In this document: positions 2,354 to 59,709 of the stretch, one piece after another | How the letters are laid out: each line of letters starts with the position of its first letter | How positions within the stretch are numbered: position 1 is the stretch's first letter | Source: an uncultured Mycoplasmatota bacterium | GTDB taxonomy: Bacteria; Bacillota_I; Bacilli_A; RF39; UBA660 | Assembly (NCBI GenBank): GCA_947426265.1 | Contig: CANEDJ010000001.1 | Span: 17,310 to 81,309, forward strand | Reading direction: 5' to 3' | DNA length: 64,000 nucleotides | Program-made: the position numbers and the translations under genes | The notes under the pieces: generated by a model | What the model was told of the DNA's origin: nothing | Database searches by the model: none | What the model saw: the letters and a program-made list of their open reading frames with translations, nothing else

Positions 2354-3205
2354 ATGTCACAGAAAAGTTATGATAATAGTCCAACCTTATATTTGATTCC
2401 AACTCCTATTGGGAACATGGACGATATTACACTTAGAACGATTAAAATATTACAGTTTGTAGATGTTATATTTTCAGAAGATACAAGAGTAACAGGACAA
2501 TTATTAAAAAGTTTAAATATAAAAAAGCCTTTAATCGCAAATCATGAACATAATGAAAGACAAAATAGTGAGAAGTTAATACAATTTTTAAAAGAAGGAA
2601 AAAATGTTGGACTAGCGAGTGATAGAGGAACTCCTATTATTAGTGACCCTGGATATGCTTTATCAAAAATAGCAATAGAAGCAGGATATAATGTAGTATC
2701 TCTTCCAGGAGCAACAGCTCTTATTCCAGCCCTCACTTCATCTGGGATAGAACCAAATCCATTTTTGTTTTATGGATTTTTAAGCAGTAAAGAAAGTAAA
2801 AGAAAAAAAGAACTCGAAAATTTAAAAGATTTTCCTTATACATTGATTTTTTATGAAGCACCACATCGAATAAAAGATACTCTTCAAAATATATCTCATA
2901 TTTTTGGAGAACGAAATATCAGCATTTCAAGAGAAATAACAAAAAAATTTGAAGAAGTTTATCGTGGAACGATTAGTGAGGTGTTACTAGAAATAGAAGA
3001 TGCCAAAGGAGAAATGGTATTAGTAGTTACTGGAAATCATGATGAAAAAAATTATGATTCTTTATCTATTATAGACCATGTTAATATTTATTTAACACAA
3101 GGTTATAATACAAAAGAAGCAATAAAAAAAGTAGCGAAAGATAGAAATGTAAAAACGAGTGAAATATATAATGAGTATCATGGGATAAAGCAGGTGGACT
3201 TATGA
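2354..3205 (+). CDS. rsmI: 16S rRNA (cytidine1402-2'-O)-methyltransferase RsmI
   Basis: LYLIPTPIGN and FSEDTR motifs of the tetrapyrrole-methylase-fold RsmI family. ATG at 2354 follows GAGGTGAG. Confidence 0.8.
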   Translation: MSQKSYDNSPTLYLIPTPIGNMDDITLRTIKILQFVDVIFSEDTRVTGQLLKSLNIKKPLIANHEHNERQNSEKLIQFLKEGKNVGLASDRGTPIISDPGYALSKIAIEAGYNVVSLPGATALIPALTSSGIEPNPFLFYGFLSSKESKRKKELENLKDFPYTLIFYEAPHRIKDTLQNISHIFGERNISISREITKKFEEVYRGTISEVLLEIEDAKGEMVLVVTGNHDEKNYDSLSIIDHVNIYLTQGYNTKEAIKKVAKDRNVKTSEIYNEYHGIKQVDL

Positions 3206-3762
3206 AAATGATAGTAGGATTAGGAAATCCAGGAAAAGAATATGAAAATACACGACACAATGTTGGCTTTATGGCAATTGATAAAATTGCTTTAAAAAAT
3301 CATGTTACCTTGAACTCAAAAAAAGGAAATGGGATTTATACAATTTTTGAAAAAGAAGATGAAAAAATATTATTATTAAAACCGCTTACCTATATGAACC
3401 TATCTGGGGAAGCTGTGAAAGCATTGATGCAATATTATAAAATAGCAGTATCAGATATATTAATCATCAGTGATGATTTAGATATGCCAACTGGGAAAAT
3501 TAAGTTGAAATATAAAGGAAGCTCAGGGGGCCATAATGGACTAAAAAACATAGAACAACATTTAAAAACACAAGAATATAAAAGACTAAAAATAGGAATT
3601 TCAAATAATAAAAATTATGATACAAAAGATTATGTATTAGGAAGATTTTCAATAGAAGAAAAGGAAAAAATAGATAGTGTACTAAATACAGTAATTGATA
3701 TTTTTGACGATTTCTGTATAAATTCTTTTGAAAACGTCATGAATAAATATAATAAAAAATAG
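3202..3762 (+). CDS. pth: peptidyl-tRNA hydrolase
   Basis: MIVGLGNPG...YENTRHNVGF N-terminus. 4-nt overlap with rsmI stop. Confidence 0.9.
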   Translation: MKMIVGLGNPGKEYENTRHNVGFMAIDKIALKNHVTLNSKKGNGIYTIFEKEDEKILLLKPLTYMNLSGEAVKALMQYYKIAVSDILIISDDLDMPTGKIKLKYKGSSGGHNGLKNIEQHLKTQEYKRLKIGISNNKNYDTKDYVLGRFSIEEKEKIDSVLNTVIDIFDDFCINSFENVMNKYNKK

Positions 3763-3808
3763 TTGTGATACAAATGTGTCACTTTTTTGGCGTATAGGAG
3801 GCAATTAT

Positions 3809-6800
3809 ATGAAACTTTTTCATTCCTTGTTCCCAAATGTTCAAACATCTGGAGAAATTACAGGATTAACCCAAGAATTAAAAATGATATATTTATATCA
3901 ATTGTGGAATCTAAAAAAAAGAAATATTTTACTTGTAGCCAATAGTTTGTATGAAGCAAATAGGTGTTATCAAAGATTAAGTAAATATACAGAAGAAGTA
4001 TATTTTTTTCCAATGGATGATTTTCTTACGAGTGAAGCCTTGGCTATTAGTCCAGAATTTAAAGTAACAAGATTAGAAACATTAAATCATTTCATATCAA
4101 AAAATAATGGAATTATTGTAACCAATTTAATGGGTTTTTTACGTTTTCTTCCCTCTAAAGAAACATATAAAAAGGCCAGAATAAAAATGCATGTTCATGA
4201 CCAAATTGATATGCATCAAGTGATAGAACAATTATTAAGACTTGGATATATCAAGGAAACGATTGTCAATAAAACAGGAGAAATTGCGATAAGAGGTTTT
4301 GTTTTAGACATATTTCCATTAGGAGCAAGTCATCCAATTCGAATCGAACTGTGGGGAGATGAAATTGATTCTATTAGAGAATTTGATGTTGATAGCCAGC
4401 TAACCATTACAGAAATAGAAGAAATCGAGATAACTTCAAATACAGAGTTTTTAATCGATGAGATTTTAGATATAGAACCAAAACAAAGAGAATTGGGAAA
4501 TTATATACAGCCTTCAATGCTATTGGACTTTGTAGAAAGTCCTATATTGGTGTTTGAAAATTATGAAGATGTTAAGAGAGGTTATCAAACATTATCAGAA
4601 GAAATATTTGAATATCAAAATAATAATCATGAAAAATATCCTTATATGCATTCTTTAGAAAATATAAAAGCAAATGATATATTATATTTAAACAACTTTG
4701 ATAATCAAATCAATGGAGAAAATAAAAGAGAACAATTTCACTCACAGGAGCTAGAAATATTACATGGAGCAAGCGAGAAAGTAAAAGCAGAAATATTAAA
4801 ATATAGAAAGAAAACAATTATTATTTGTGTATCGAATCGTTATCAAGTTAATAAATTACTAGAAGAATGGAATGATATTTCAATTGCTTTTACTTCAATA
4901 AATGAAATAGTAGAGAATGCGATTAATATAGTAATCTATCCAATAACGCAGGGATTTCTATTTAAAGAGTATGTGGTTATTAGTGAACGAGAATTATTTG
5001 CGAAACAAGATTATTCTAGTAAATATAAAAGTAACTTTAAAATAGGAACAAAAATAAAAAATTTATCCAGTCTAGAAGAAGGAGACTATGTAGTTCATGT
5101 CGCCCATGGAATTGGAAAATATTGTGGATTAAAAACATTAGTAAAAAATGGTTTTAAAAAAGATTATTTGAATATTGAATATAAAGATGGCGACCATTTA
5201 TATGTACCAGTAGAAAAGATAGAATTTATTCATAAATATTCATCTAAAGATACAGCAATGCCAAAACTGAGTAAATTAGGCGGAACAGAATGGCAGAAGA
5301 AAAAATTAAAGGCAAGAGAACGAGCGGAAAGTATCGCAGGAGAGTTATTAGAACTTTATTCTTCAAGAGAATCCATAGAAGGTTTTGCATTTGAAGAAGA
5401 TTCAAAAGAACAATTGGAATTTGAAAAAGAATTTCCATATCAAGAAACATTAGACCAAATAAAAGTATCTACAGAAATCAAAAAGGATATGGAAAAACCA
5501 CATCCTATGGATAGACTACTATGTGGAGATGTTGGTTATGGAAAAACAGAAGTAGCATTTCGTGCCATTTTTAAAGCAATTCATTCAGGAAAACAAGTAG
5601 CATTTCTTTGTCCAACGACCATATTATCAGGGCAACATTATAGAAATGCAATAGAACGCTATCAAAATTATCCGTTTAATATTTGTCTTCTAAATCGATT
5701 CGTCAAGCCAAAACAATTGAAAGAAAATTTAAAGAAAATAGAAGAAGGAAAAATAGATTTGGTCATAGGGACACATCGTTTATTAAGTGATGATGTAAAA
5801 TTTAAAGATTTGGGATTATTGGTCATTGATGAAGAACAGAGGTTTGGAGTAAAACATAAAGAAAAGATAAAGCAGTACAAAAATAATATTGATGTATTAA
5901 CTTTATCAGCAACTCCAATTCCAAGAACCCTTCAAATGTCAATCGCTGGGATTAGAAGTATGTCTTTAATAGAAACACCTCCAGTAAATCGTTATCCTGT
6001 TCAGACTTATGTATTAGCAGAAAATGCGCAAATGATAAAAGATGCTGTTTATAAAGAATTAGGGAGAAATGGACAAGTTTTTATCTTATATAATCATATT
6101 GAAAGTATGGAAAGAAAAGAGCAAGAAATAAAACAATTGATACCAGAGGCTAGAATAATCAGTGTGCATGGTCAGATGGATAAAAATGATATGGAAGATA
6201 AAATTCTGGATTTTATAAATCAAAAGTATGACATTTTATTATGTACAACAATTATTGAAACAGGAATTGATATGCCAAATGTGAATACATTAATCATTTT
6301 AGAAGCAGATTACTTTGGCTTATCACAACTTTATCAAATTAGAGGAAGAGTAGGAAGAAGTAATAAAATTGCTTATTGTTATTTGATGTATACTCCAGGA
6401 AAAAGTTTGTCTGAAATAGCAACCAAACGATTAACAGTCATTAAAGATTTTACAGAATTAGGAAGTGGATTTTCAATTGCCATGAGAGATTTATCAATAC
6501 GTGGAGCAGGGGACGTATTAGGGAGTGAACAAGCTGGCTTTATTGATACTGTAGGAATAGATTTGTTTTTAGAAATGTTAAACGAAGCAGTAGAAAAGAA
6601 AAAGGGAAATATAATTGAAGAAAAGAAAGAAGAAGAACAACCATTACTAGATGTAGAAACAGCAATAGATAATGATTATGTTTCAGATACTGAATTAAAA
6701 ATTGAAATTCATCAAAAAGTAAATCAAATTAATTCAAAAGAAAAACTTTTGGAAGTTAAAAAAGAAATAGAAGATAGATTTGGTAAAATTTCTGATTCAT

Positions 6801-48621: not shown

Positions 48622-49554
48622 ATGGGCGGCAAGATATTTAAAACCTTAGATGAACAAATAGAAATCTTAAAATCAAAAGGGTTGATAGTTGAAGACTTAG
48701 ATAAAGCAAAAGAGATTTTATTCCGTGAAAATTACTTTTTTATTAGTGGATATAGACACCTGTTTATGCGCACAGTGAAAGAAAGTAGATTTATTGAAGG
48801 AACGACTTTTGATGAGCTTTATGCAATGTTTTTGTTTGACAGAAAAATACGAAATATTATGTTCAAATATTTATTAATAATTGAAAATAATATCAAATCA
48901 ATCATCAGTTACACTTTGTCAAAAAAATATGGTTTTAAAGAAAAAGATTATTTGGACCCTAAAAATTTTACGCAAGATAATTTAAGAGTGAGACAAGTAC
49001 ATGATGTTCTAAATAAAATGAAAAGGCAAATAAGAGTAAATGGAAAACAACATGCTGCTACTATGCATTACCTTAGCAATTATGGTTATATACCAATGTG
49101 GATTTTAGTAAAAGTATTGTCATTTGGAATTGTTTCTGAATTATATTGTATACTAAAAGCAGAAGATCAAGAAACAATAGCAGATATATATGGTATTGAT
49201 ATTGAATCTTTAACGATATATTTAGCTCTTCTTTCAAATTTTAGAAATTTATGTGCTCATGAAGATATTTTATATGACCATAGGACCCAAAGAGTAATTC
49301 CAGATAATAAGTATCATCATATGTTAGATATCAGTCAAACAAAAGATGAATATGATTTTGGAAAAAATGATCTATATGCGCTTATTATTATCATGAAGCA
49401 AATGCTTAGAGAAGAAGAATTTCGAGAATTGATATATGAATTAGGTTATGAAATTGATATACTAGATGGTAAAGTAGAAGTATTACCATTAAACACAATT
49501 TTAAATAAAATAGGTTTTCCAGATAATTGGAGAGATATTGTTGATATGGATTAA
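48622..49554 (+). CDS. Abi_2 family abortive-infection protein (AbiD/AbiF-like)
   Basis: N-terminal LDEQIEILKSKGLIVED...YFFISGYRHLF characteristic of Abi_2. About 310 aa. Confidence 0.65.
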   Translation: MGGKIFKTLDEQIEILKSKGLIVEDLDKAKEILFRENYFFISGYRHLFMRTVKESRFIEGTTFDELYAMFLFDRKIRNIMFKYLLIIENNIKSIISYTLSKKYGFKEKDYLDPKNFTQDNLRVRQVHDVLNKMKRQIRVNGKQHAATMHYLSNYGYIPMWILVKVLSFGIVSELYCILKAEDQETIADIYGIDIESLTIYLALLSNFRNLCAHEDILYDHRTQRVIPDNKYHHMLDISQTKDEYDFGKNDLYALIIIMKQMLREEEFRELIYELGYEIDILDGKVEVLPLNTILNKIGFPDNWRDIVDMD

Positions 49555-53367: not shown

Positions 53368-53441
53368 AGGGGTATAGTTCAATGGTAGAATAACGGTCTC
53401 CAAAACCGCTGATGTGGGTTCAACTCCTGCTACCCCTGCCA
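53368..53441 (+). tRNA. trnW: tRNA-Trp (anticodon CCA), CCA 3' end encoded
   Basis: Folded by hand into a cloverleaf. Acceptor AGGGGTA/TACCCCT, D-arm GTTC-AATGGTA-GAAT, anticodon loop CTCCAAA, T-arm GTGGG-TTCAACT-CCTGC, discriminator G. Confidence 0.75.
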
Positions 53442-53492
53442 AATGTAAATAAACTCTAAATTTTAGAGTTTTTAATATATGATAAGAAAGAA

Positions 53493-53852
53493 ATGATTAA
53501 GATGGATAATGATTTTGTATATTTATCAAGTCATCAAGGATTTGCTCTAGTTGATAAAATTAGTGAACTAAAAGAAAATCCATATTTTAGAGATGAAATT
53601 GCCGAAAGTTTTATAAAAGAAGTCTATACAAGGGCTACAGAAATAACCGTTAATAGTCTCAACACTGGAACTAATATATTGTCAAAATTACGAAAAAATG
53701 GCAATAAAATTAAAATCTCAAAAAGTAAATTTGAATATATAACAAGATTAACTGGAATAGATGTTTTTGATGAAGAAACTATTAATCAATTTATATCTAA
53801 AGTAAATAAGGCTAATCCTGAAACTGAACAAACTAACTTAAGAAGAAGATAA
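53493..53852 (+). CDS. hypothetical protein (119 aa)
   Basis: ORF immediately downstream of tRNA-Trp. No recognisable domain. Weak RBS. Confidence 0.35.
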   Translation: MIKMDNDFVYLSSHQGFALVDKISELKENPYFRDEIAESFIKEVYTRATEITVNSLNTGTNILSKLRKNGNKIKISKSKFEYITRLTGIDVFDEETINQFISKVNKANPETEQTNLRRR

Positions 53853-53973
53853 TAAAAGTAACATTCATACAACAAATAAAATTTGGAAACTCGTTCAGTT
53901 TCCGTGCCATTTGAGAATAAGGCGAACTCCATCTTCGTATTTAAAGGTGGTGTCGCTATTAATATAGCAATTA

Positions 53974-54000
53974 AAAGAGTGCCAAAGTGGGCACTTTTTT
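53974..54000 (+). terminator. rho-independent terminator
   Basis: Stem agtgcc/ggcact followed by T6. Confidence 0.5.
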
Positions 54001-54029
54001 CCATTTTATGGTATAATTAAGGTATGAAG

Positions 54030-54732
54030 GAAATGGTAGAAGTAATTCGAATAGATTAGTTTCTAATATATAATGAAACTGAATTTGTGACAAGGAATTA
54101 CTCATAAAGCATATGAGGAACTTAATTTGTCCGATGTACAATTAGAAACTTTTATAGAAAGATTAATTATTGATATAAATGCTCTAACATATGAGGACTT
54201 AGAAAAATAGTTTTTGCACAATTAAAAAATGAGTTTTCTTGTAATGACGAACTCTTAGAATTATATTTTATAAAGGCTGGGAGTATAATAAAAGAGTTGG
54301 CTGTAAAAGATGATGTAAATGACAGAAAAATAAGCAAAAAAGTTTTTTAAAGTTAATATCAGATGTTAATAAAACCTTAGATAGTTGGTATGTTAGCAAG
54401 ATTGGTATAGAGAAATATTGTAAATTAATGAGAAAAAAATATCTCAAATGTATGGTAATAGAGAAATTATGACATCTATCATTAGATATTTGAATAGCTT
54501 AGGATGTAAGACTTCTACTGATAAAGAGTTCAATAAAAGTAGTATAGGAAGAATATTAAACAATAAAAAGTATATAGGAGTTTATTTACATAGAGATATA
54601 GAAACCCCAGATGGAATACCTAGAATAATAGAAGATGAATTGTTTGGGAAAGTTCAACAGGAGCTAACCAGGAACGGTTTGGTGTCTGCTAGAAATAGAG
54701 CAAATTTTATTAAAAGAAATAAAAAATTATAA
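54030..54732 (+). pseudogene. decayed large serine recombinase gene (frameshifted fragments; longest piece 54448..54732 retains recombinase-domain similarity)
   Basis: The 94-aa fragment IIRYLNSLGCKTSTDKEFNKSSIGRILNNKKYIGVY...IIEDELFGKVQQEL matches the recombinase domain that follows the resolvase domain in large serine recombinases. Upstream 400 bp holds several short out-of-frame ORF pieces and no intact N-terminal catalytic domain. Confidence 0.4.
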
Positions 54733-54889: not shown

Positions 54890-55231
54890 ATGAATCATGA
54901 AATGAGATTACATGAAGGACCATTTAATAGAATTAATAGTGGAATAAAAACGATAGAGTATCGATTAAATGATGAAAAAAGAAGACAAATTAAGGTAAAT
55001 GACACAATTACTTTTTATAAAAGACCTGAAGAAGTAGAAACAATTAAGGTAAAAGTTGTAGAGTTAAGATATTATGATACTTTACTAGATATGTATGCAG
55101 ATACTTTTAAAAGTTATTTAAATGAAATATATGAATCTCCACAGGCAGTAGTAGATGATACTTCCTACTATACAGAGGAAGAAGTAAAAAAATATGGTTG
55201 TGTAGCAATCTTTTTTGTGAGAATCGGATAA
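54890..55231 (+). CDS. ASCH-domain protein (YqfB-like PUA-fold)
   Basis: 113 aa. F..INSGIKTIEYR...IKVNDTITFY pattern plus C-terminal YGCVAIFFVRI, resembling the ASCH/YqfB architecture. Confidence 0.55.
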   Translation: MNHEMRLHEGPFNRINSGIKTIEYRLNDEKRRQIKVNDTITFYKRPEEVETIKVKVVELRYYDTLLDMYADTFKSYLNEIYESPQAVVDDTSYYTEEEVKKYGCVAIFFVRIG

Positions 55232-55233
55232 AT

Positions 55234-55713
55234 ATGGTTACAATTATTAATTATGATAGAAAATATGCAGAAGAAATAGATAAACTAGATCAAGAATATT
55301 GGGGAATCTGCGAAACTACTAATGTATCAGATGAAATAAGAGACCAGGATATTGTGAAACTTGCAAAGTTAGAAGATTATATTGTAGGCATTATACATTT
55401 TAAACCAATAGGAGATTTAATAGACGCTTATCATCTTTTAGTAAAGCCAGAGAATCAGGGACAAGGAATTGGCAACCTTTTGATGAAAGAAGCCTTAAAA
55501 GAAACTTTAAAAAATGATTTTAAAACAGTAATCGCTCATGCTGTAGAATTTGAAGGAAATATAAATGCAAAGAAAATATTGGAGACTAATGGATTTCAGG
55601 AACTTTATAGAGTAAAAAATTATTGGGAATCTTTATACCCGGGGAGTTATTGTAAACAATGTAATAGCTATCAATGTCATTGTGGAGTAGTTGTATATCG
55701 AAAGAACTTATAA
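55234..55713 (+). CDS. GNAT-family N-acetyltransferase (160 aa) with Cys-rich C-terminal tail
   Basis: Acetyl-CoA motif A QGQGIGNLLMKEAL. Starts 2 nt after the ASCH stop. Tail CKQCNSYQCHC. Confidence 0.7.
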   Translation: MVTIINYDRKYAEEIDKLDQEYWGICETTNVSDEIRDQDIVKLAKLEDYIVGIIHFKPIGDLIDAYHLLVKPENQGQGIGNLLMKEALKETLKNDFKTVIAHAVEFEGNINAKKILETNGFQELYRVKNYWESLYPGSYCKQCNSYQCHCGVVVYRKNL

Positions 55714-55750: not shown

Positions 55751-55759
55751 TGGTATAAT
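55751..55759 (+). promoter_or_regulatory. extended -10 TGgTATAAT upstream of nucleotidase gene
   Basis: TG at 55751-55752 and TATAAT at 55754-55759. This excludes the ATG at 55758 as the start codon. Confidence 0.4.
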
Positions 55760-55781
55760 GAAATTGAAGAGGAGGATAAGA

Positions 55782-56297
55782 ATGGATAAAGAAATTAAAA
55801 ATATACTAAAATTAGTAGATGAAAATTTTTGGTACATGATTGATATTGATGGAGTTTGCATAGATACAGAAGAACGTATTGCTATTATAGCTCGTCAATT
55901 AGGATGGAAAAGAGCCTTAGAAACAATAAATTGGCATGAGCATATTTATTCTTCTAGGCAGATCAATCATAGTTTAGATGTATTAAGAGAAGTTCAAAAG
56001 AATTTAAAAAGAATTCAACTATTAACTACAAATCATAGTCCTCTTGAAAAGAAAGAGAAGATCTCTTTTATGAGAGAACAAGGCATAGAAATTCCAATTG
56101 TTTCAGTGCCACCAAAAGTATCAAAAGCATTAGTAGTTCCCCCATCATTTTATAATCGGAAAGTTGTATTGGTAGATGATAAGAAAGAAAATGTTATAGA
56201 TTGGAGAAATCATGGAGGAGTGGGAATTGTTTTTACAGAACAGGATAGTTCAACTCCAAAAGTAAAAAGTTTAGAATTTTTAAGATATGTAAAGTAG
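55782..56297 (+). CDS. HAD-superfamily 5'(3')-deoxyribonucleotidase-like protein (NT5C family)
   Basis: N-terminal YMIDIDGVCID (DxDG nucleophile motif) and C-terminal VLVDDKKENV. ATG after GAGGAGGA. Confidence 0.5.
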   Translation: MDKEIKNILKLVDENFWYMIDIDGVCIDTEERIAIIARQLGWKRALETINWHEHIYSSRQINHSLDVLREVQKNLKRIQLLTTNHSPLEKKEKISFMREQGIEIPIVSVPPKVSKALVVPPSFYNRKVVLVDDKKENVIDWRNHGGVGIVFTEQDSSTPKVKSLEFLRYVK

Positions 56298-56307
56298 GAG
56301 GTATTAT

Positions 56308-58371
56308 ATGTTAATCAAATCAAACGCAATAGATCGTTTATTAAGGGAAAATCCAGGCTTAGGAGAAAGACGTTTTGGATTGCCAGATATTGGTCTTAGA
56401 GTAGATGGTGAAAAGTTCAATCCGACAGTTCAAAGCATTGCTGATGCAATAGATTTTTATGGTTTCGAAGTGAGAGATGAAAATATAGCAACAATTCCTG
56501 ATATAGATTTAGGAAGTGGGAATCCAACAAAGTATCCCCCATTTCCTCTATCAATAGAAGAAATGAAAAAATCTTTAGATTCTCTTTCTATGTACAAATA
56601 TCCCTATACAGAAGGTGATGATAATATTAGAAAAATATTACTTGATTATATAGAAAAAGAAGGAATTATTAATACTTCACCATATGCTTATAAAGACGTG
56701 GATGAAAAAGGTTTATCTGTTCATAATGTTACTTTTTTGCCATCAACATCAATTGCATTTAATATGATTATTAATGTTATCTCAAAGCCAGGAGATGTTG
56801 TATTAGTAACAGGTCCGAATTATGGCTTATTCACAATTCGAGCAGAAAGGGCAGGAGCCGAAGTTGAAATATTAAATTTAGAAAAAGAAGATAATTGGCT
56901 AGTCAATCCAACAAAGTTGGCGAATAAAATAGATGAAATCAATGAGAGTTTACAAAAGGTTTATAATCGTAGAAAAGGATATGTTCCAAGAGTAGTGGCG
57001 TTTTTAAATGCGAACCCAAATAATCCAACTGGAAAAGTGATGGGAGAAAAAGATATCGATTTACTGAGAGCAATAGGACAAATCTGCTTGGAACGTGGTG
57101 TGTTTATAATTGATGATTTGGTATATCGTGATTTAACGTTTGATGAAAATAATCTTGCAAAACCAATCGCAACAATTCCAGGAATGTTCCGAAATACAAT
57201 CTCTTTGTTTGGACTTTCTAAAAGCTATGGAATGGCTAGTTTACGTGCTGGATTTGTAGTGGCAGATGAAATTATAATTAGAGAGTTAATAAATCGTATT
57301 TTCCAAGAAATGGATTCTTCTCCAGATATTGTAGGAAGAGCTTTAGCTGGTGCATTTAATACAAGCAAAGAAAGAGAACTTGTCTATCAGGAATACTTTC
57401 GTGATTTAAGAAATATCTATCAGTATAAATTTCATTTATTAAAGGCTCTGGTAAATGGAATTGAAAGCATTAAAGATAGTCCTTATTATGAAGAAGTAAG
57501 CTCCAAAATAGTATCTGAAGTAGAAAAAGAAAATTTAGAACAAGTCTTAAAGGGACTTCCTTATACGGATTTTCCAGAAAATTTAATACCAGAAGCTGGA
57601 TTTTTCGCTATTTTAGATTTTACAAGAATAAAAGGTATGAAATATCATGGGGATACAATCAATAGCGAAAAAGATTTATTAAAATTTTTCTATAAAACTT
57701 CTAGGACAAGATTTTTAGTCGGGCAATCAATTAGTTGGCCTTATGAAAATGAATTAGTGGGGAGGGTTACTTTTGCCCTAGAAGATGAACAAATTATTAG
57801 TGCACTTAAAAATATGAATTTAGCACTTTCAAAGCTTACAGTAAGAGAAGAATATATTATTAGAAAAAATGAGCTAAAAGATCAGGAGCAAATGGCTCAT
57901 ATTAAAGTCGATGGTTGGAGAACTGCATACGATAAAATTGTCGCATCAAAATATTTAAATGAATTAAATTATGAGGCTCAAACAGAACGTTATATACGTA
58001 GTTTTGAAGATTATAAAGATTTAGTATTGGTGGCAGTAGAAGGTAATGAAGTTTTAGGCTATTCTTGTTTTGATATTAAGAAATTCTATGAGAAATATGA
58101 TTCTGAATTGGTTAGTTTATATATTAAACCTGATCATAAAGGAAAAGGGATAGGAAGTGCATTATTCAAAGAAACGGTAAAAGAACTATTAAGTCGTGAT
58201 AGAAAAAATATGATAGTTTGGTGTTTTGCAGAAAATGAAAAAGCAATTCGTTTTTATGAAAAATTAGGTGGAAAAAATGTAGAAACGAAACAAGCTAAAA
58301 TAGGAGATAATTATTATAAAGAATATGGATTTTACTTTGATTTAGAAATGATAATGAAAGATCAATTCTAA
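56308..58371 (+). CDS. fusion protein: class I/II PLP-dependent aminotransferase (N, about 480 aa) plus GNAT acetyltransferase (C, about 170 aa)
   Basis: IDLGSGNP near the N-terminus. SKSYGMASLRAGF PLP-lysine motif. C-terminal YIKPDHKGKGIGSALF GNAT motif A. Confidence 0.65.
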   Translation: MLIKSNAIDRLLRENPGLGERRFGLPDIGLRVDGEKFNPTVQSIADAIDFYGFEVRDENIATIPDIDLGSGNPTKYPPFPLSIEEMKKSLDSLSMYKYPYTEGDDNIRKILLDYIEKEGIINTSPYAYKDVDEKGLSVHNVTFLPSTSIAFNMIINVISKPGDVVLVTGPNYGLFTIRAERAGAEVEILNLEKEDNWLVNPTKLANKIDEINESLQKVYNRRKGYVPRVVAFLNANPNNPTGKVMGEKDIDLLRAIGQICLERGVFIIDDLVYRDLTFDENNLAKPIATIPGMFRNTISLFGLSKSYGMASLRAGFVVADEIIIRELINRIFQEMDSSPDIVGRALAGAFNTSKERELVYQEYFRDLRNIYQYKFHLLKALVNGIESIKDSPYYEEVSSKIVSEVEKENLEQVLKGLPYTDFPENLIPEAGFFAILDFTRIKGMKYHGDTINSEKDLLKFFYKTSRTRFLVGQSISWPYENELVGRVTFALEDEQIISALKNMNLALSKLTVREEYIIRKNELKDQEQMAHIKVDGWRTAYDKIVASKYLNELNYEAQTERYIRSFEDYKDLVLVAVEGNEVLGYSCFDIKKFYEKYDSELVSLYIKPDHKGKGIGSALFKETVKELLSRDRKNMIVWCFAENEKAIRFYEKLGGKNVETKQAKIGDNYYKEYGFYFDLEMIMKDQF

Positions 58372-58383
58372 AAGGAGGTTAGT

Positions 58384-59433
58384 ATGACTTACTTAATATT
58401 TCAATCAGCGTTATCAATAGAGAATAATCAAATACAATCTTGGGCGCCCAAAAGGAATCCTAAAACAAATAATAAAAAATATTGGTGGGAAAATGTTGGA
58501 AAAATAAAAAAGGGAGATATTATATATTTCATTTCAGATGCATATTTATGTGCCAAAGGAAGAGCTATTATGGATGGTAAAGAAGTAGTACATCAAGATT
58601 ATTATACTGAACCTCACAATAATGATAGTTGGAGCGATGATGGATATGGAGTTATTAGTGAAGTTTTAGAAACTTATCAAACCAAACAAATAAAAATAAT
58701 ACAGGAAATGAAACAGAAAAATTATCAGATAGAAGCACAAGAGAAGGATCGTTTTCCCTTTTGTATTAGAACAGGCAGTTTTACCGCAAAACAAGGGGGA
58801 TATTGTTTTGAAATTCATTCAAAGCTGATTACATTTATAGAAGAATGTGTTATAAATGCAGGAAATAGAATAAAATGGGGAGAGAAATATAATCATCATA
58901 ATATATTAGATAAGAAACTTCCTAGTACATATGGAACAAGTGAAATATCTTCAAAAAAAATAAAAAAGGGAGAAAAAGGAGAAAAAGGAACTCAAAAATT
59001 TTTTGAAAATAAAGGATTTCTTACGGAACTTGTAGCAGAGGAGAAGCGAAATCCAGCAGATTTGGTCATTAGGAATAATGGCAAAGAATACATGATAGAG
59101 ATAAAGAATATAACTGTAGAATCGGCAGAAAAGTCTATTTATTTAAATGACTCACAGCTTCAAAATTTATATTTACAAAAGACTTATTTATGTTTATATT
59201 ATGGCTTAGAAGAAATGGTATTTTTATTAAATCCTCAGAAACAAAAAACAGTAATAAAAGAGCTTATAGAAAGTTTTGATAAAATTCGGGAAAATGTAAT
59301 TCACCAATATAGTGGAAAATTTTATGTAGATAATATTTCAGTTTTATTGACAGAGAAAATGATTGTAGAAAATTTTATCGATATTAGTAATTGGAATTTA
59401 AATCAAATAGAAGCCTATTTAAATAAAAAATAG
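58384..59433 (+). CDS. hypothetical two-domain protein: N-terminal PUA-like (EVE/ASCH-like?) domain plus C-terminal PD-(D/E)xK nuclease-like (DUF3883-like) domain
   Basis: N-terminal WAPKRNPKTNNKKYWWENVGKIKKGDIIYF. C-terminal GFLTELVAEEKRNPADLVIRNNGKEYMIEIK with D...E.K spacing. Tentative. Confidence 0.35.
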   Translation: MTYLIFQSALSIENNQIQSWAPKRNPKTNNKKYWWENVGKIKKGDIIYFISDAYLCAKGRAIMDGKEVVHQDYYTEPHNNDSWSDDGYGVISEVLETYQTKQIKIIQEMKQKNYQIEAQEKDRFPFCIRTGSFTAKQGGYCFEIHSKLITFIEECVINAGNRIKWGEKYNHHNILDKKLPSTYGTSEISSKKIKKGEKGEKGTQKFFENKGFLTELVAEEKRNPADLVIRNNGKEYMIEIKNITVESAEKSIYLNDSQLQNLYLQKTYLCLYYGLEEMVFLLNPQKQKTVIKELIESFDKIRENVIHQYSGKFYVDNISVLLTEKMIVENFIDISNWNLNQIEAYLNKK

Positions 59434-59445
59434 AAGTGTGAACTT

Positions 59446-59709
59446 CTATTTTACTTTAGGATCCTCAAATAATTGGTCAATCTGAATATTTAAGACTTGA
59501 CTAATATTCCATAAAACTGGAACACTTACCATTTGTTTCTCAGATTCTAAGGTTCCAATTAAACCTGTACTAACTCCAATCATTTCAGCTAAAGCTGCTT
59601 GCGTGATACGCTCTTTATGATTTAAGTTATATAAATTTCGATAATAGCGAACATTACTACCAACTAACCTTGCCAATTCTTCTTTATTGTTATCATTATA
59701 TAATTTCAT
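59446..59709 (-). CDS. XRE-family helix-turn-helix transcriptional regulator
   Basis: HTH ITQAALAEMIGVSTGLIGTLESEKQ. 87 aa. Confidence 0.75.
   Translation of the reverse strand: MKLYNDNNKEELARLVGSNVRYYRNLYNLNHKERITQAALAEMIGVSTGLIGTLESEKQMVSVPVLWNISQVLNIQIDQLFEDPKVK

Follow-up and report, generated by a model that had tools for sequence, protein, structure and literature searches.

The window analysed here, a stretch of 64,000 nucleotides, encodes a 349-amino-acid protein that, judged from its sequence and a predicted structure, is probably a single-chain, NTP-independent, modification-dependent (type IV) restriction endonuclease. A predicted sensor of modified bases and a predicted nuclease are joined in one polypeptide, and no NTPase or other domain was detected, which is the arrangement of single-chain type IV enzymes. 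A sequence-only reading of this DNA had already suggested that a fusion of a reader with a nuclease acts here as a type IV restriction enzyme; the homology of the sensor and of the PD-(D/E)xK domain, their folds and the conservation of their key residues support that suggestion. Most likely the protein is a restriction enzyme directed against phage, of a type catalogued before.

The coding sequence is complete, running over positions 58384..59433 of the + strand (349 codons and a TAG stop) and encoding an EVE domain, a linker and a PD-(D/E)xK domain in that order. We found the open reading frame at the coordinates, on the strand and with the length originally claimed; the two peptides quoted from it are also present, WAPKRNPKTNNKKYWWENVGKIKKGDIIYF starting at residue 20 and ADLVIRNNGKEYMIEIK at residues 225-241, the latter with the D226-x12-E239-I-K241 arrangement as described. 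A canonical Shine-Dalgarno motif read from the sequence (AAGGAGG, 58372..58378, + strand) is placed 5 nt 5′ of the ATG and begins immediately after the stop codon of the upstream aminotransferase-GNAT gene (58369-58371), so that no space is left for a promoter of the gene's own; the distance from that stop to the ATG is 12 nt. A scan for promoter and terminator consensus sequences at the locus gave nothing above shuffled-sequence expectation. Homologues align over the full length of the protein at 32-99% identity, and pairwise Nei-Gojobori comparisons of four species-level lineages gave dN/dS values of 0.19-0.23 at dS values of 0.87-1.19, a ratio of about 0.2 that points to purifying selection. 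Given the Shine-Dalgarno motif, the full-length homologues and this ratio, the open reading frame is a genuine gene and not a chance one.

At its 3′ end the gene meets a convergent gene for an XRE regulator (59446-59709), and the TAG stops of both genes lie within a hairpin at 59427..59452 that has an 11-bp stem, a 4-nt loop (AAAAAUAGAAGU / ACUUCUAUUUU) and A- and T-tracts on either side. This hairpin was spotted by eye first, and its free energy and conservation were tested afterwards: the free energy is -11.2 kcal/mol on the + strand and -10.3 kcal/mol on the - strand (z = -2.9 and -2.8), and the four lineages compared have identical stem arms but differ in the loop. It is probably a bidirectional terminator common to the two genes. 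The GC content of the window is low, at about 29%.

Whole-protein scans against Pfam, NCBIfam, PADLOC and PDB sequences returned no significant match, the best, to Pfam PUA, having E=0.17 and 12.3 bits where the cut-off is 24.8. Within Pfam the protein matched neither EVE (PF01878) nor ASCH (PF04266), and PUA (PF01472) remained below its gathering threshold; the curated defence models of PADLOC-DB v2 yielded 0 families at E≤10, and a search of PHROGs yielded nothing significant. These whole-protein scans were uninformative, and the domain identities reported below came only from domain-specific profiles. A word-indexed search with the whole protein recovered four close relatives and no others, and an exhaustive HMMER search with a five-sequence profile recovered 21 proteins at E≤1e-3 from 1.84 billion cluster representatives. 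With so few matches in a collection of that size, the family in which an EVE domain is fused to an Hjc/NOV_C-like nuclease is very rare, and its distribution is patchy.

The N-terminal domain (residues ~1-160; 58384..58863, + strand) was identified as an EVE domain of the VcaM4I type and is predicted to be a base-flipping sensor of a modified base. It had been taken for a PUA-fold reader of 100 residues; the PUA-like fold holds and is of the EVE type, but the domain is about 160 residues long. A profile of this domain (A2, 11 sequences) matched chain 6yex_A among PDB sequences at E=3.9e-19 and 72 bits, aligning query residues 2-161 with chain residues 2-152, so that the sequence homology to the VcaM4I EVE domain is both significant and full-length; the predicted PUA-like pseudobarrel is closer to EVE proteins than to ASCH, YTH or strict PUA domains. 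Residues invariant in A2 are F6, W20-A21-P22, W35, D45, W83, G87, P125 and Y140. 6YEX is the structure of VcaM4I, prototype of the EVE-HNH modification-dependent restriction endonucleases and representative of a clade of EVE domains distant from the classical ones (PMC7897488). Its EVE domain flips 5mC/5hmC into a pocket formed mainly by P24, W82 and Y130, reads the base's Watson-Crick edge through T11 and E15 and through main-chain groups belonging to Q10 and W22, and uses Q128 as a wedge (PMC7897488).

We mapped these residues in a 128-sequence alignment that included nine members of the target family and 118 of the wider clade. The W20-A21-P22 motif (58441..58449, + strand) corresponds to VcaM4I W22-S23-P24, W83 (58630..58632, + strand) to W82 on one face of the aromatic cage, and Y140, the last residue of Q137-G-G-Y140 (58792..58803, + strand), to Y130 on the other face. 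All four residues of this hydrophobic cage are present in every family member (9/9 each), and the wider clade keeps them nearly as strictly: W20, whose VcaM4I counterpart offers its main-chain C=O to N4, in 118/118, and the stacking residues P22, W83 and Y140 in 116/118, 114/118 and 118/118, respectively. A further alignment (A4) gave similar counts (W20 60/60, P22 58/60, W83 57/60, Y140 60/60). The contacts to the cytosine Watson-Crick edge of the kind made by T11 and E15, in contrast, are not conserved among the nine family members. The column of T11, whose hydroxyl contacts the base edge, holds A9 in the target and A, E, D, K or G in the family, against 102 T and 9 S in the wider clade; the column of E15, whose carboxylate contacts N4, holds E13 in the target and is Glu in 4/9 of the family against 115/118 of the clade. 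In the wedge column the clade has Gln in 105/118 sequences and the family Gly in 8/9 (G138 in the target), with Q137 one position earlier. All family rows displayed carry Q-x-x-Y, placing the Gln three residues before the cage Tyr as opposed to two in VcaM4I (Q128-x-Y130), and relative to the VcaM4I clade the family has a 5-residue insertion in the wedge loop ahead of Q137-G-G-Y140. Q137 is a candidate for the DNA-intercalating wedge residue.

As the stacking residues are conserved but the T11/E15 contacts are not, and as the loop before Q137-G-G-Y140 carries an insertion, the family appears to have kept the base-flipping cage while reading the base edge differently. The recognised base may consequently not be that of VcaM4I, and a specificity for 5mC/5hmC should not be assumed where these contacts are unconserved and the wedge loop is remodelled. 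One may go further and postulate, from the retention of the stacking cage and a wedge Gln together with the loss of T11/E15 and the gain of the 5-residue insertion, that the pocket has been re-tuned to a base other than 5mC/5hmC, such as a modified derivative of thymine or uracil, a cytosine modified at N4 or a hypermodified base of greater bulk; we regard this as rather unlikely, though deserving of some weight.

Downstream of the EVE domain, a linker (residues ~161-183; 58864..58932, + strand) forms the least confident part of the structural model (pLDDT 66-79 over residues 160-190) and leads into the nuclease module (residues ~184-349; 58933..59430, + strand), which consists of a G-T-S lead-in, a PD-(D/E)xK core and a helical C-terminal extension. 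The module had been described as occupying the C-terminal third of the protein; the nuclease assignment stands on the fold and on invariant E/D/E/K residues, but the module makes up nearly the C-terminal half. Its Hjc/NOV_C-like core comprises a helix (186-210), strands at 213-216, 227-231, 234-242 and 251-253, a helix (256-263) and strands at 268-273 and 278-282, in keeping with a restriction-endonuclease-like alpha-beta-beta-beta-alpha-beta fold, and is followed by a family-specific helical extension of about 60 residues (287-346). The predicted active site is formed by E200 on the first helix (58981..58983, + strand), D226 as the predicted catalytic aspartate (59059..59061, + strand) and E239-I-K241 as the ExK of the motif (59098..59106, + strand).

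The E...D...(D/E)xK signature is kept among homologues, with all four residues invariant in the 18 sequences of the C-domain alignment (A3, 22-68% identity) and in 22/22 relatives of a larger set; conservation of D226, E239 and K241 was the check proposed at the outset for the nuclease assignment, and the three residues pass it without exception. G196 and N242 are likewise invariant in A3, and S257 and Y309 are nearly so. The A3 profile matches the archaeal Holliday-junction resolvase Hjc (1gef_A, E=0.0011), aligning E200, D226, E239 and K241 with E9, D33, E46 and K48, which we take to be the catalytic residues of Hjc. The resemblance to DUF3883 that had been remarked on holds for the order of the motifs, which is that of NOV_C, but not for formal membership: the target has no match to NOV_C/DUF3883 (PF13020) at E≤10 and does not reach the gathering threshold of 22.1 bits. 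When the A3 members were scanned one by one against Pfam, 6/18 gave sub-threshold NOV_C matches (best E=2.2e-4) and one gave an Hjc match, and hhalign of A3 against three true NOV_C domains from EVE-NOV_C proteins aligned 78 columns including every motif (probability 60%, E=8.7e-5), a match that supports distant kinship and not PF13020 membership. A word-indexed search with the C-domain profile found 7 proteins, 0 of them annotated. The module is thus best described as a rare and divergent nuclease, predicted to be of the Hjc/NOV_C-like PD-(D/E)xK type.

AlphaFold2 run with 5 close homologues only gave pLDDT values below 50 for residues 1-196. With an alignment of 74 rows, composed of full-length relatives and trimmed N- and C-domain pieces, the mean pLDDT was 87.9 with 0 residues below 50 and a pTM of 0.55; as the two domains are connected by a less confident linker, this pTM leaves their mutual orientation uncertain in the model. 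Foldseek ranked VcaM4I first (E=2.8e-6), followed by PD-(D/E)xK nucleases and EVE proteins, so that a PUA-like and a restriction-endonuclease-like fold, the two on which the original reading depended, are both predicted. In a viral fold library the matches were to RecU, Hjc, NOV_C and PD-(D/E)xK phage proteins, and the nearest structural relatives of the nuclease domain (Hjc, RecU, I-Ssp6803I and PvuII) are all DNA enzymes. These relatives bear on an alternative in which the protein senses and cuts modified RNA, for instance tRNA or phage transcripts, in place of DNA. The classical view of EVE and YTH domains as RNA readers would accommodate it, but with the nuclease resembling DNA enzymes throughout, and with VcaM4I, the closest solved relative of the sensor, binding DNA with a flipped 5mC/5hmC, we consider an RNA target quite improbable.

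The two halves of the protein also occur apart among the 21 HMMER matches. The C-terminal half (query ~172-347) lies behind unrelated N-termini in P0012-P0024, and the N-terminal half (query 3-159) is found in P0018, P0021 and P0023; of these, P0021 combines the same EVE module with a true NOV_C/DUF3883 C-terminus (PF13020, E=3.3e-21). A Pfam scan of the other N-termini that precede the nuclease module gave no match apart from a weak SAD_SRA hit in P0017 (E=0.0035), and the idea that an SRA sensor stands there ahead of the same nuclease was dropped when a profile of the N-termini matched no SRA structure. A search with the A2 profile retrieved 174 proteins, in none of which does any Pfam model cover the EVE module. 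Among them the module stands alone (~150 aa) or is fused to HNH_2 (PF13391, ~300 aa) in proteins often annotated as 'HNH endonuclease' or 'putative restriction endonuclease', and its further partners are HNH (PF01844), NOV_C (PF13020), an XRE HTH domain and unannotated regions. By these comparisons the VcaM4I-type EVE sensor appears to be a portable module, found alone or with HNH_2, HNH, NOV_C or the rare Hjc/NOV_C-like nuclease.

The variable stretch that contains the gene is downstream of a tRNA-Trp gene (53368-53441) and also holds a serine recombinase remnant (54448-54732); a search for repeats resembling att sites on either side of the island found only short, chance-level matches. The neighbours previously named are all present in the window: an ASCH gene (54890-55231), a GNAT gene (55198-55713), a second GNAT within a 687-aa aminotransferase-GNAT fusion directly upstream (56308-58371), and the convergent XRE gene. 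An AbiD gene is found in the window 9 kb upstream. The gene itself stands close behind a metabolic-looking operon and not in a classic defence island. No DNA methyltransferase gene is adjacent among the neighbours in the window or at related loci, and this orphan status, together with the patchy distribution of the family, fits a type IV enzyme. The window and three other lineages at 65-69% identity keep a block that consists of a ~175-183-aa protein of unknown function, the 687-aa aminotransferase-GNAT protein, the target, the convergent XRE gene and a 61-aa gene. Since the core genes around it (DUF308, ATP-grasp, SpoU, CdaA and YbbR) are conserved as well, the block appears to be a case of synteny by descent. 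The ASCH and GNAT pair occurs in only some of these four lineages. A fifth lineage (L017) carries the target and XRE genes at this locus as well, and upstream of the target it has an acyltransferase. Around members at 32-35% identity the neighbouring genes are unrelated to these: P0008 comes after a gene for a BglII-type endonuclease, P0005 has radical-SAM, NUDIX and UvrD-like genes nearby, and P0009 is flanked by genes for a sortase and an ABC transporter.

This variation bears on the suggestion, made when the neighbours were first noted, that the protein is tied to an acetyl mark. In its fullest form the target would act jointly with the upstream HAD-like gene, the aminotransferase-GNAT gene and the ASCH and GNAT pair to police an acetylated or otherwise GNAT-made mark on nucleic acid. 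Gaps of 10-12 nt between the genes suggest that the target is transcribed together with the 179-aa and 687-aa genes, the block is conserved in four lineages, EVE-GNAT fusions set a precedent for combining a PUA fold with a GNAT, and one ASCH protein is described as an N4-acetylcytidine amidohydrolase (PDB 9kyf). The linkage is confined, however, to lineages at 65-99% identity that have the whole neighbourhood in common, which indicates synteny by descent; the ASCH and GNAT pair is missing in the P0002 lineage, L017 has no aminotransferase-GNAT gene, the distant members have wholly different surroundings, and a NUDIX gene precedes the EVE-NOV_C relative P0021. Comparison thus does not support functional coupling to the GNAT and ASCH genes, and we hold a joint pathway to be highly unlikely.

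The XRE gene is retained beside the target in all five lineages at this locus, and the conserved terminator hairpin is common to both genes. One might therefore imagine that the protein acts as a toxin or in abortive infection, its nuclease being freed on infection from auto-inhibition by the EVE domain or linker, with XRE as regulator or antitoxin. Such a role has a very slim chance: the XRE gene is convergent and not co-transcribed, it is absent beside the distant members, and its matches to restriction-modification control-protein models are only at the level of a generic helix-turn-helix. The same orientation and the same generic matches led us to reject XRE as a control protein of a restriction-modification system.

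A very improbable alternative makes the protein a nuclease of DNA repair or recombination, akin to Hjc or RecU and directed by the EVE domain to damaged bases, with no role in defence. Holliday-junction resolvases rank among the C-domain's best matches in sequence and in structure, and an Ogt-type repair gene lies two genes downstream in some lineages. A housekeeping repair gene would hardly be so sparse and patchy (21 in 1.84 billion), however; the EVE module is otherwise partnered with HNH and NOV_C nucleases that are annotated as restriction endonucleases; and an in-frame stop is tolerated in one lineage, the L017 copy being split by a single TAG exactly at the linker.

Among known systems, the sensor of the target is closest to the EVE-HNH group of VcaM4I, TspA15I and CmeDI (6YEX, 6YJB, 6YKF and 6YMG), but these enzymes carry an HNH nuclease where the target has PD-(D/E)xK, identity to VcaM4I is only about 13-14%, the T11/E15 contacts are not conserved in the target's family, and the wedge loop of the target has 5 extra residues and a Gln displaced by one position. 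DUF3883/NOV_C, which is known to serve YenY4I and McaZI, both restriction enzymes, as catalytic domain and is also present in the EVE-NOV_C proteins P0021, P0072 and P0099, has the motif order of the target (G-x-x-x-E, D, (I/L)E(V/I)K, S-x-(N/S)-(E/Q)) and likewise sits C-terminal to a modification sensor, which in P0021 is the target's own EVE module; the target differs in adding the conserved G-T-S lead-in and the ~60-residue helical extension with its near-invariant Tyr (Y309). Hjc (1GEF, 2WCW) and RecU/PrfA are the best solved-structure matches of the catalytic core in sequence and fold, yet Hjc is a standalone protein of ~120 aa that reads DNA structure and has no base-sensor domain comparable to the target's EVE domain; the likeness is one of common catalytic fold, not of function.

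MspJI (SRA-PD-(D/E)xK) and PvuRts1I/AbaSI (PD-(D/E)xK-SRA) follow the same logic as the target, pairing a base-flipping sensor of the PUA superfamily with a PD-(D/E)xK nuclease, and cut at a distance from the modified cytosine; their sensor is SRA whereas that of the target is EVE, and no search showed sequence homology of the target to either. EVE-PD(D/E)XK fusions have been catalogued computationally as predicted type IV restriction endonucleases (Bell, Wolf and Koonin 2020, PMC7641849), a class with the domain architecture and predicted role of the target, although that census was seeded on classical EVE domains. In the literature found, the EVE enzymes described biochemically and structurally are EVE-HNH only. 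The target is therefore most likely a rare addition to a catalogued architecture and not a new kind of system; what seems distinctive about it is a sensor clade and a nuclease module that lie outside profile libraries, and a pocket in which the cytosine-edge contacts appear to have diverged.

The mechanism that we infer starts with the EVE domain (~1-160), which would bind double-stranded DNA and flip a modified pyrimidine, most plausibly a 5-substituted cytosine, out of the helix. The base would be held in the hydrophobic cage of P22, W83 and Y140, with the Gln-bearing loop (Q137) filling the gap left in the helix. In the PD-(D/E)xK domain (~184-349), E200, D226, E239 and K241 would hold a divalent metal and cut near the recognised base; a dimer would probably be needed for double-strand breaks. 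Under this proposal the host DNA does not carry the mark, so that no partner methyltransferase would be needed, and phage or plasmid DNA that does carry it would be attacked.

Because neither the sensor clade nor the nuclease module has a model in Pfam, NCBIfam or PADLOC, routine defence annotation misses such genes. Modification-dependent enzymes are of use as reagents to map modified bases, and with its altered pocket this one is of interest for its specificity; were the pocket indeed re-tuned, the protein would be a restriction enzyme whose modification specificity is new, on a nuclease module outside profile libraries. For the host genome the meaning is modest, another orphan restriction gene in a variable region beside a tRNA gene. 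For the family, the protein would, if confirmed, offer a first point of entry to the EVE-PD-(D/E)xK type IV restriction enzymes, an architecture so far predicted in censuses.

The stretch that follows the tRNA-Trp gene (window 53368-53441) is a hotspot of integration where mobile elements have left decayed remains, because in the window a large serine recombinase persists after the tRNA gene as a 94-aa fragment (54448-54732; PF07508; whole interval 53368-54732), and at the same place related genomes carry either serine recombinases that are intact or fragments of resolvase and rve genes (locus L002, 3387-6042; locus L008, 3256-3966). About 9 kb upstream of the restriction-like gene, an AbiD/Abi_2 abortive-infection gene (48622-49554; PADLOC AbiD, E=9.6e-62; Pfam Abi_2, E=3.5e-41) adjoins an HtrA-like protease gene; an AbiD/Abi_2 gene is also present in the related locus L001.

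Two sets of genes lie between the recombinase fragment and the restriction-like gene. The first comprises an ASCH-domain gene (54890-55231; PF04266, E=1.5e-9) and a small GNAT acetyltransferase gene (55198-55713), whose reading frames overlap by 34 nt, which suggests that the two are translationally coupled. There is precedent for pairing a PUA-fold protein with a GNAT in EVE-GNAT fusions, and N4-acetylcytidine amidohydrolase activity is known for an ASCH protein (PDB 9kyf). Both the window and L007-L009 carry the pair; in L006 there is a GNAT gene without the ASCH gene, and L001-L005 lack both. The second set is a conserved two-gene unit (55758-58371) whose members are spaced 10 nt apart. Its first gene encodes a 179-aa protein for which family searches gave no match; on visual inspection, a D-x-D-G-V motif at its start resembles that of HAD proteins. 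The product of the second gene, 687 aa long, joins a class I/II aminotransferase (PF00155) to a GNAT domain at the C-terminus. In four lineages this unit has the same orientation as the restriction-like gene and is tightly packed against it, and it is missing from L017, the fifth lineage with the restriction-like gene.

The restriction-like gene itself differs among lineages at its 3' end and in its linker. Ahead of the terminator hairpin, the poly-A run of the window lineage is one A shorter than in L001, L006 and L007 (window 59421-59433; alignment A7), which places a TAG in frame, so that the final residues of the other lineages (I-E-V, or K) are lost; in L001, L006 and L007 the coding sequence includes the hairpin's 5' arm. 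In L017 the orthologue (2827-3900) is interrupted where the linker between the domains carries one in-frame TAG, yielding a 174-aa EVE reading frame (P0006) and a 172-aa nuclease reading frame (P0010). Every motif residue is intact, and the TAG represents either a nonsense mutation of recent origin or a functional split where the two domains meet.

Among more distant homologs, a NUDIX hydrolase gene ends 4 nt before the start of P0021, the EVE-NOV_C relative, and the full-length family member P0005 has nearby a NUDIX gene, a UvrD-like helicase gene and a pair of radical-SAM genes; the NUDIX association may be recurrent among these loci (L018/L019, 5605-7044; L012, 6606-7010). The rare nuclease module also occurs in P0016, P0017, P0019, P0022 and P0143, where it follows a conserved N-terminal region, ~250 aa long and fused to it, with invariant R-G-x-F, W-I and P-I-Y-x-F motifs. 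One member gave a weak Pfam SAD_SRA match in this region (E=0.0035), but SRA kinship was not confirmed when PDB sequences were searched with a profile. The EVE-module family, for its part, includes a large subgroup of 273-293 aa proteins (P0077-P0105), in which a small N-terminal domain (MK..G..V.H..FG.G.V) is followed by an Ala/Glu/Lys-rich linker and a C-terminal EVE domain. No nuclease is recognisable in these proteins, which may read modified DNA without cutting it.
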